IMG/VR virus record: IMGVR_UViG_2711768044_000007
Location: 1-35,105 of that record
Reading direction: 5' to 3' (one strand)
Source: a virus
Taxonomy: Duplodnaviria; Heunggongvirae; Uroviricota; Caudoviricetes
DNA length: 35,105 nt
In this document: positions 8,835 to 9,510 of the stretch, in pieces
Position numbering within the stretch: the first letter of the stretch is position 1
Layout: every line of letters begins with the position of its first letter
Notes under the pieces: model-generated
What the model saw: the letters and a program-made list of their open reading frames with translations, nothing else
Database searches by the model: none
Told to the model about the DNA's origin: nothing
Made by a program: the position numbers and the translations under genes

Positions 8835-8866
8835 AAATCCCGCCACAGTGCGGGATTTCTTATTTT
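8835..8866 (+). terminator. intrinsic terminator-like hairpin after gemA
   Basis: AAATCCCGC-cacagt-GCGGGATTT (9-bp stem, 6-nt loop) followed by cttatttt. Confidence 0.6.
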
Positions 8867-9206
8867 ACTCCTCTGATTTAAAAGAAGCTCGAATCAAACT
8901 GGGTACTCCAAGCTTATCCAGATCATTTACGTTGTAGCCGTTTATTTTTACGGATGTCAGTTGCCCGTTCTCATTCATGGTTAATTCAACACTGGCATCC
9001 TTGTGTCGGTTTATCCATTTTTTTACGATGAGAACAATAGCGGCCCATGTTTCTGGCGTGTTAACCGCATGGAGCAACTCAACCATTTCGGTTACATTGT
9101 ATGATAAAGCTGCAATAGGGGTGTATCTGATACCATTATCCTGCAGGGACTGGTACATGTCATCGGTATAGCCTGATTCAAACTCAATGATGGGGCCAAA
9201 AGTCAT
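8865..9206 (-). CDS. hypothetical protein, reverse-oriented moron between gemA and mor
   Basis: 113-aa minus-strand ORF; AGGAC ~9 nt upstream of ATG; visibly AT-richer than flanking phage genes; AT-rich putative promoter region 9207-9479; bracketed by two copies of the same hairpin. Confidence 0.55.
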   Translation of the reverse strand: MTFGPIIEFESGYTDDMYQSLQDNGIRYTPIAALSYNVTEMVELLHAVNTPETWAAIVLIVKKWINRHKDASVELTMNENGQLTSVKINGYNVNDLDKLGVPSLIRASFKSEE

Positions 9207-9479
9207 ATGAACATAGTCCTGTATAAAAAAACGTTAAAGGAACGGTTTGTTATCTTCAGAGCGTTAGTTTTTATGTCTTTTTCCATGCTTTTTTACGGCA
9301 AAGCATGTTTGATAATAAAAGACAACCAGCTCGCATATACCAGTGATGATCTCATCAGTGGTAAAAAAACAATCGGTATATTCAGAAGAATAAATAAATG
9401 ATCTTTATCATACACTTACACGATTAACTGATCAATATTTGTCCAGGTATTGTTAAGCCCGTTTATTCGTTACATTCCT

Positions 9480-9510
9480 AAATCCCGCCACAGCGCGGGA
9501 TTTTTATTTT
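9480..9510 (+). terminator. second copy of the terminator-like hairpin, upstream of mor
   Basis: AAATCCCGCCACAGCGCGGGATTT + ttatttt; differs from the copy at 8835-8858 by one loop base. Confidence 0.55.

Follow-up and report, generated by a model that had tools for sequence, protein, structure and literature searches.

A putative two-gene moron in the gemA-mor slot of an Sp18-type Mu-like prophage of Escherichia coli

The definition of a moron reportedly goes back to Hendrix and colleagues, with bor and lom of lambda and the morons of HK97 and HK022 as examples. The morons of temperate phages are recognizable as an extra unit between genes that are adjacent in relatives, with promoter- and terminator-like signals, a deviant composition, and an orientation that allows expression independent of the phage operons. 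Mu-like phages of Pseudomonas provide a second point of comparison; in the part of the published account drawn on here, their conserved core is broken at fixed positions by variable accessory genes, forming regions of genomic plasticity (BMC Genomics 2014, PMC4378225), although host, phages, and junctions differ from those considered below and no shared gene content is implied. Here we describe a tailed-phage stretch of 35,105 nucleotides (nt) (Caudoviricetes; IMG/VR record IMGVR_UViG_2711768044_000007, positions 1 to 35,105), referred to as the window, in which a cassette at positions 8859-9479 separates the early gene gemA from mor, the gene of a Mor/C-family activator. We read this cassette—with a probability of about one half—as an independently transcribed, horizontally exchanged two-gene moron in a recombination slot of an Sp18-type Mu-like E. 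coli prophage. As a kind of moron it is ordinary, its internal wiring is unusual, and nothing so far shows an unusual mechanism; it differs from the temperate-phage morons above in that its two genes are head to head with abutting starts, the promoter of one lying beyond the other, and in that two copies of the phage's own boundary palindrome bracket it.

The anatomy, the presence/absence polymorphism, and the rarity of the insert were established. In a survey of 5,426 complete E. coli genomes, 232 records carry this gemA region. Two of the 232 have the window insert (mouse isolates M1 and M3, 99.5% identical), four have a different insert of similar length (e.g., STEC2018-607), and the remainder are shorter by the length of the insert. 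The Sp18-type empty junction is matched over at least 80% of its length by 218 records, 201 of them at 99% identity or more; where we read empty junctions directly (M18, JKHS016, JE86-ST05, and Sakai Sp18), the gemA stop is followed by one C-loop hairpin, with mor 70 nt downstream. Insert DNA was found in just 2 of the 5,426 genomes even when a sensitive search mode was included. Neither that DNA nor the larger cassette protein, of 113 amino acids (aa), was present in the plasmid and phage collections searched, and a scan of the GTDB genome collection with GemA gave no confirmed relative.

The locus shares with other morons its absence from close relatives with adjacent flanks, a promoter and a terminator at the sequence level, and a deviant guanine-plus-cytosine (GC) content—0.32-0.44 in the insert against 0.50-0.62 in the flanks, with the bin 9001-9600 the lowest in the window. 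An earlier note, made from the letters alone, had proposed a reverse-oriented single-gene moron at this place, and much of its description was borne out: two near-identical 24-nt hairpins, AAATCCCGCCACAGTGCGGGATTT at 8835-8858 and AAATCCCGCCACAGCGCGGGATTT at 9480-9503, each followed by a T-run; an AT-richer segment between them; and a minus-strand open reading frame (ORF) for a 113-aa protein that has its own Shine-Dalgarno sequence, an AGGA 10 nt upstream of the ATG, and no assignable motif. Its proposal of accessory cargo lodged at the gemA-mor terminator is likewise supported by the empty relatives, the deviant GC, and the lack of any known family; most related prophages have gemA and mor adjacent with one hairpin copy, and an insert present in 2 of 5,426 genomes is no core gene carried universally.

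The insert consists, however, of two genes and not one, because a small plus-strand ORF shows third-position-dominated substitution with a ratio of nonsynonymous to synonymous substitution (dN/dS) of 0.07. What the earlier note took for an AT-rich upstream region is this conserved 64-aa gene, which abuts the 113-aa gene start to start on the opposite strand (5'-CAT/ATG-3'), so that the supposed single gene is one half of a head-to-head pair. Coding status was established by comparison among loci. Between homologous loci L006 and L007, the differences at first, second, and third codon positions are 7, 3, and 19 in the small gene, the source of the dN/dS of 0.07, and 13, 7, and 30 in the larger gene, where a dN/dS of 0.16 indicates purifying selection. 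Between the window and L006 the small gene differs at 20, 8, and 40 positions, with dN/dS not computable as dS is saturated; the range given for this gene over the comparisons is 0.07-0.4. A codon-aligned comparison found both ORFs open, with a third-position bias, in five loci. None of the seven phage loci has the small ORF interrupted, even where amino-acid identity falls to 33%, and the replacements are conservative from one end of it to the other; the pair stays adjacent and start to start in the same number of loci, and the identities of the two proteins track each other across loci (0.56/0.53, 0.33/0.44, and 0.41/0.33). The same head-to-head layout was found beside every phage-borne 113-aa homologue examined (L006, L007, L025, L026, L027, and L032), and a diverged version of the small ORF lies beside the L002 allele. 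Both insert genes are coding and under purifying selection.

The two proteins belong to very small families—the 113-aa family has 12 clusters among 5.8e9 proteins and five genuine representatives among 1.84e9, and the 64-aa family has five clusters. Neither protein has an above-threshold match in Pfam, PHROG, PADLOC, NCBIfam, or PDB, the best match in the PDB profile search having E=0.17, and the alternative cargoes of the slot are likewise without an above-threshold match in Pfam, PHROG, PADLOC, or NCBIfam. The small protein has a Kyte-Doolittle maximum over 19 residues of 1.88.

As a boundary element, the 24-nt palindrome belongs to the phage itself, and unoccupied genomes have one copy of it. 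It has only two matches in the 35-kb window when up to three mismatches are allowed, and none in 100 shuffles; with the T-run included, an imperfect direct repeat of about 31-33 nt lies on either side of the insert. Each copy folds into a 9-bp stem on either strand (-13.2 to -15.2 kcal/mol, z -3.3 to -4.8) and both were scored as terminator-like on the plus strand. The stop codon of the 113-aa gene (8865-8867) falls within the T-run of the left copy, which is likely a bidirectional terminator for gemA and the converging 113-aa gene; on the minus strand the stem is trailed by just TTT, and leftward termination there is accordingly predicted from the fold. The right copy, with its C loop, has the same sequence as the lone hairpin of empty sites.

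At least three kinds of content were found at the gemA-mor junction by examining IMG/VR loci and protein look-ups (Table 1). All are on the minus strand, with a full hairpin to the left; the copy to the right is full in some and degenerate in others. The GemA proteins of the window and of L002 are 98.8% identical and their cassettes very different, which argues for exchange by recombination within a fixed frame; the 140-aa protein of L002 is a doubtful candidate homologue of the 113-aa family (hhalign E=0.01, probability 4%). A further IMG/VR locus, L012, retains only roughly the final 60 nt of gemA upstream of the hairpin, with unrelated coding sequence in place of the rest; this has the look of a deletion or rearrangement whose endpoint is immediately ahead of the palindrome.

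Another lineage of Mu-like phages, with the order gemA-mor-...-C-lys, provides a second site for the pair, which was established in L025, L026, and L032 between a C-like gene and the lysozyme gene, accompanied by the same promoter motif as in the window. Twenty-six relatives, with a C-like protein 69-78% identical, lack the pair at this position and have a gap of about 110 nt instead of about 695 nt. No hairpin duplication or such repeats are seen at the second site; the duplication therefore belongs to the gemA-mor slot rather than to the cassette. We considered whether GGCGGGATT in L025 is a hairpin fragment carried along with the cassette and rejected this, as the motif CCATAATCCCGCC belongs to the late-promoter region resident at that site, and Mu and relatives with an empty site have it too.

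Outside phages, the 113-aa protein has more distant relatives at 28-32% identity, in L028, L029, and L031 (Yokenella regensburgei, 6001-6734), where a co-directional, conserved, acidic 87-aa partner replaces the small membrane peptide. The Yokenella relative adjoins AbiTii and an Endonuclease_NS_2-like gene in an island, with type VI secretion genes nearby; from its gene content the island looks like a defence-island context.

Upstream of the 113-aa gene, and beyond the small gene, lies a sigma-70-like promoter (Table 1). With nine of 12 consensus matches it is unremarkable taken alone; what was established is the conservation of the motif, which six loci (window, L002, L006, L007, L025, and L032) share at a distance of -229 to -232 from the larger gene's ATG. 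All six have two GATC sites with a constant separation of 30 bp, the first in the -35 hexamer and the second at about -3 to +1; in the window these are 9430-9433 and 9400-9403. For a minus-strand transcript the predicted start, at about 9400, overlaps the small ORF's stop codon, and the predicted leader of about 194 nt (9400 to 9207) would be antisense to all of the 64-aa ORF. Inside the 113-aa gene, no conserved sigma-70 promoter that could serve the small ORF was found, and since the 64-aa gene has no recognizable promoter of its own, it would be made only by rightward read-through of the early operon; we guess that read-through from gemA is the most economical source of its mRNA. GATC in promoter hexamers makes some promoters sensitive to Dam methylation, including those of IS10, Tn5, and P1 cre; by analogy, Dam methylation possibly helps to set which cassette partner is made. 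Separately, a perfect 12-nt inverted repeat (TGTATGATAAAG at 9098-9109 and CTTTATCATACA at 9403-9414) puts a second copy of the promoter's -10 region, inverted, within the 113-aa gene; chance alone would give about 0.09 such repeats in this stretch, and this one is not conserved in L006.

For the cassette's transcripts, their regulation, and their function, we infer the following scheme from the arrangement of these elements. Placed between the early operon, which ends with gemA, and the Mor/C activator gene, and bracketed by the two palindrome copies, the cassette would have its left copy end both gemA and the converging cassette transcript, with the right copy keeping mor in its native upstream context; the two copies would also act as short homologies for cassette exchange. 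The leftward TTGATC-N17-TATGAT promoter would give the antisense leader followed by the 113-aa gene, leaving read-through to supply the 64-aa protein. The products—a basic, single-pass membrane peptide and an acidic, weakly EACC1-like protein—might form a membrane-directed toxin/partner pair, and the antisense overlap, possibly with Dam methylation, would decide which partner is made.

Type I toxin-antitoxin loci such as hok/sok and ibs/sib offer a parallel to this wiring. As in those loci, a gene for a small, basic, hydrophobic peptide is fully overlapped by a predicted, convergently initiated antisense transcript with a conserved promoter. In contrast, the antisense RNA here would be the leader of the mRNA of a second conserved protein and not a small RNA, the cassette peptide is longer (63-69 aa), and its toxicity is putative.

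The lead for the larger protein comes from EACC1, which has been described as the membrane-associated component of a two-gene system with a caspase-like protease (eLife 2020, PMC7159879) and is reported to form pores once its N-terminal half has been removed by proteolysis (bioRxiv 10.1101/2025.11.14.688446). Five of ten members of the 113-aa family (15-18 bits), as well as the family consensus, match the C-terminal half of the EACC1 model PF19953 colinearly; the consensus scores best, at 19.6 bits and E=9e-4, below the gathering score of 23.6. An hhalign comparison with the EACC1 protein of Ktedonobacter (KrEACC1) aligned the W-L-x-R motif and the strand after it (E=0.015), and 11 of 3000 shuffles of KrEACC1 reached its score against the family profile (empirical p about 0.004). 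The likeness extends to size, at about 110 aa, and may extend to a small-residue-rich hydrophobic helix ending in W-L-x-R before a beta-hairpin; the model of the 113-aa protein has this order (helix 51-66, strands 72-77 and 83-89) at a predicted local distance difference test score (pLDDT) of only 48-49, and the best 19-residue hydropathy of that protein is only 1.09, against 1.71 for KrEACC1. The differences are that the partner here is a 64-aa membrane peptide and that the setting is a phage as opposed to a conflict island of a multicellular bacterium. The resemblance suggests a membrane activity for the 113-aa family.

A membrane-directed toxin/partner pair serving phage-host or phage-phage conflict, by exclusion or abortive infection, is the function that these leads point to most, and we put it forward as a doubtful but leading candidate; the chief alternative, which appears unlikely, is that the pair acts in lysis or regulation for the phage itself. 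Less probable still is the most elaborate version, in which the pair would be a so far unrecognized, protease-independent EACC1 relative with a membrane peptide, forming an exclusion or abortive-infection module switched by antisense overlap and a Dam-sensitive promoter, so that passage of a replication fork or the onset of lytic transcription would flip the partner that is made.

Table 1. Coordinates of features at the gemA-mor slot of the window, with the contents of the slot and of a neighbouring spot in related loci.
Feature	Position or locus	Strand	Remarks
gemA (gp16 family), last early-operon gene, left slot flank	8322..8831	+	PF06252 E=8.4e-30, phrog_286 1e-54
Left palindrome copy with T-run	8835..8867		hairpin 8835-8858, loop variant T
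113-aa acidic protein gene	8865..9206	-	net charge -6; tiny family; EACC1-like signal below threshold
64-aa basic small protein gene	9207..9401	+	net charge +8; one hydrophobic segment, residues 19-37
Sigma-70-like promoter for 113-aa gene	9407..9435	-	-35 TTGATC 9430-9435, 17-nt spacer, -10 TATGAT 9407-9412
Right palindrome copy with T-run	9480..9510		hairpin 9480-9503, loop variant C
Spacer, right hairpin to mor ribosome-binding site	9504..9528		remnant of about 20 nt, and TGTAAT 9523-9528
Mor/C-family activator gene, right slot flank	9546..9968	+	PF08765 E=8.9e-31, phrog_532 "late transcriptional activator" 1.4e-44
Slot content: 113-aa/64-aa pair	window, M1/M3, L006, L007, L027		
Slot content: diverged pair	L002, L021		140 aa and 78 aa
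Slot content: unrelated 143-aa protein	L015, L020, L023	-	N-terminal signal peptide MNIKLITGLVVLGVSFCVAAEQ..., no Pfam match; degenerate right hairpin copy
Variable spot upstream of gemA	L004:999-1409 (-), L005:1161-1400 (-), L007:6945-7355 (opposite to phage genes), L025:8129-8488, L027:4969-5190		

Several observations weigh against reading the cassette as an exchanged two-gene moron with a conflict function. The small gene has just a weak GGG/AGG upstream and no conserved promoter; the right palindrome copy is truncated or degenerate in Salmonella-type loci, so it is not universally required; and a remnant of a cassette 3' end in "empty" sites means that the family may be an old resident and not a recent arrival. 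PADLOC gives no match for the cassette proteins, and the AlphaFold2 models are unusable, with pLDDT of 48 and 49 from alignments of 7 and 10 sequences. The EACC1 similarity lies below the Pfam threshold, the window protein itself has no EACC1 match, and no gene for a caspase-like or cysteine protease was found in any phage locus, the neighbours being gemA, the 64-aa gene, and mor; EACC1 membership is not established, because protease and match are both lacking.

The remnant bears on the alternative that survives best—that the cassette is an ancient resident of the gemA-mor junction now being lost, which the window lineage kept or regained by phage-phage recombination, with empty sites as deletion scars. 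In E. coli-type junctions, the hairpin is followed by a stretch of about 20 nt (9504-9528 here) that can be aligned to the 3' end of the coding sequence in the Salmonella-type cassette gene (TTTTAAA-CTTGCCCTG), and the score of the local alignment to L006/L007 was reached by none of 5000 shuffles. The peptide encoded by the remnant, ..RASFK, is conserved across the family and the window gene uses different codons for it, which argues that the direction was from gene to remnant. An old residence is also suggested by homologues of 33-60% identity at the same junction and in the same orientation in the distant lineages of L006, L007, and L027, whose GemA proteins are about 65-68% identical, and by divergences of similar order in cassette and flank. 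Against it stand the near-identical GemA proteins of the window and L002 with their very different cassettes, the pair at a different junction in a lineage where 26 relatives lack it, an insert GC clearly below that of the phage backbone, an unrelated gene in the same slot, and family members outside phages. We consider ancient residence with ongoing loss somewhat improbable.

Because empty E. coli sites carry the remnant, loss and re-acquisition are likelier than one simple insertion, and the E. coli lineage probably once held a Salmonella-type cassette and lost it, the window lineage later regaining a related one. The earlier note was thus right in kind, as to a moron at a terminator, and wrong in detail, as to the two genes, the multi-allele slot, and the loss-and-regain history. 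Its "horizontally acquired cargo" holds insofar as the cassette is accessory and exchangeable, and is tempered by the remnant insofar as it meant a simple recent foreign insertion; its "inserted at the terminator" is accurate for the slot in the window and fails as a property of the cassette, since the pair also sits at another junction.

The palindrome raises a further alternative, which requires some background on Mu. There, the predicted terminator after mor falls inside the annotated Mor-dependent promoter Pm (GenBank AF083977), and Mor binds a 16-bp dyad in Pm, at -51 to -36, in which 6 bp separate two inverted repeats of 5 bp each (PMC4390567, PMC4287176). A promoter of the Pm type would have its 5-6-5 dyad centred at -43.5 from the start, a -10 hexamer, and no -35. 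The core of the right copy in the window, CCCGC-CACAGC-GCGGG (9484-9499), is a 5-6-5 dyad that matches the architecture described for the Mor site of Mu Pm (PMC4390567), and the hexamer TGTAAT at 9523-9528 would place the centre of the dyad at exactly -43.5, a geometry read from the sequence. Additionally, two other sequences are similar to the hairpin arm AAATCCCGCC: AAATCCTGCC, which lies upstream of lys at 9977-9986, and ATAATCCCGC, from the C-dependent Plys of Mu. Taken together, the dyad architecture, the -43.5 geometry, and the likeness of the arm make a dual role plausible, in which the palindrome would be both RNA terminator and DNA activator site; we offer this as a tentative candidate. 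In both phages a GC-rich palindrome with a T-run ends the early operon, and in Mu it overlaps an activator-dependent promoter region; the Mu element, in contrast, comes after mor and drives gp18-C, whereas the one here precedes the sole Mor/C gene, sister lineages do not conserve a -10 at the corresponding distance, and activator binding is a candidate property.

An alternative built on this resemblance is that the pair serves the phage's lytic programme, in the timing of lysis or in insulating or tuning Mor/C expression, with the duplicated palindrome mainly an activator site of Mor/C type. The Mu precedent, the centred dyad, and the arm likeness all fit. The left hairpins of L006 and L007 are 24/24 identical with GemA only about 68% identical, and the lysozyme gene of L025 and L032 is immediately preceded by the small membrane-protein gene, which reads in the same direction. 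The ultra-conservation of the hairpin was considered as a sign of protein binding, and this is weakened by the way most loci with a perfect palindrome were obtained—by an exact-pattern search of IMG/VR, which makes their 100% hairpin identity an ascertainment artefact; only L006 and L007 were found independently of the hairpin. The cassette is missing from more than 95% of related prophages and is therefore dispensable; the -10-like hexamer TGTAAT is absent at matching distance from Sp18 (L024) and from Salmonella-type empty sites; and the right copy is degenerate or truncated in L006, L007, L020, and L023. A service to the lytic programme strikes us as unlikely.

Some further observations concern the same regulatory elements. 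The sequence AAATCCTGCCCAC upstream of lys (9977-9989) resembles the hairpin arm plus loop, AAATCCCGCCACA, and also ATAATCCCGCACC in the C-dependent Plys of Mu (L059 2417-2429), and the likeness also concerns the regions upstream of the lysozyme gene in L025 and L033; a 9-mer of this element occurs four times in the window against 0.76 expected. The likeness between the upstream-lys element and the hairpin arm may reflect a shared Mor/C recognition element. The window family has one Mor/C-family gene between gemA and lys, in place of the mor, gp18-20, and C of Mu (L059), and the cascade of this prophage may be two-tiered rather than three-tiered. An additional regulator may be encoded at 7141-7692, by the gene of a 183-aa SANT/Myb-like DNA-binding protein.

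The single-gene version of the moron would assign 9207-9479 to the 113-aa gene, solely as its promoter and 5' untranslated region, and would see in the 64-codon ORF a non-coding by-product of a conserved leader. The conserved promoter beyond the small ORF does mean that the region is probably transcribed as a leader, and the small ORF is without a good Shine-Dalgarno sequence or promoter. The ribosome-binding regions of the two genes are nested in each other's first codons—AGGA in the MxI(I/V)LY codons of the small gene and GGG/AGG in the conserved G-P codons of the larger one—and part of the N-terminal conservation in both proteins probably results from this overlap; the MxIIL codons, which cover the opposite-strand Shine-Dalgarno sequence of the 113-aa gene, are a case in point. 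Moreover, in the non-phage relatives the small ORF is absent or is truncated after about 10 codons, as read from L028. A by-product would hardly stay open in seven phage loci down to 33% identity with conservative replacements throughout, nor would it collect the third-position-heavy substitutions and the dN/dS values given above, and Rfam, searched over 8600-9700, returned chance-level matches only and thus no RNA family at the site. We regard a lone gene with a long leader as very improbable.

The idea that a transposable or hairpin-targeting element inserted the segment, with the hairpins as its ends or as a target-site duplication, was rejected as extremely improbable: the imperfect direct repeat of about 31-33 nt and the bracketed layout shared by three unrelated contents would fit it, but the ORF list and family searches show no transposase or recombinase gene in the insert, there are no terminal inverted repeats apart from the hairpins themselves, the repeat is the phage's resident element and far longer than known target duplications, and the cassette has no such repeats at its second site.

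If the proposed conflict function holds, a compact (about 0.6 kb) and experimentally tractable two-protein module would join the conflict genes borne by prophages, and a cassette slot would be defined in Sp18-type Mu-like prophages, which are common in pathogenic E. coli. The palindrome-bounded slot, with its several known contents, could be mined for more accessory genes. The antisense-overlapped, head-to-head layout with GATC sites in the promoter could provide a clean system for studying mutually exclusive products of one locus; should the pair have no phenotype, it would be one more orphan moron.

The slot is not the only variable part of these prophages. A second variable spot lies immediately upstream of gemA, which is labelled "gp16 family protein" in E. 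coli M3, and several relatives have a reverse-oriented gene there (Table 1); the contents include a 136-aa DUF2513/phrog_585 protein, a 79-aa ORF, and others, and the window has co-directional ORFs at 7689-8325. The tail-gene region of the window contains a gap of low GC (0.46) at 21719-22177, before a 493-aa ORF at 22456-23937. This gap holds an 88-aa minus-strand ORF (21836-22102) without a PHROG match, which may be another reverse-oriented moron. Three minus-strand genes lie at the right end (33023-33595, 33821-34177, and 34743-35075); the first encodes a tail-fibre assembly protein (phrog_136, 1e-54), which would fit an invertible or alternative tail-fibre segment like that of Mu, and the other two have no assignable function.

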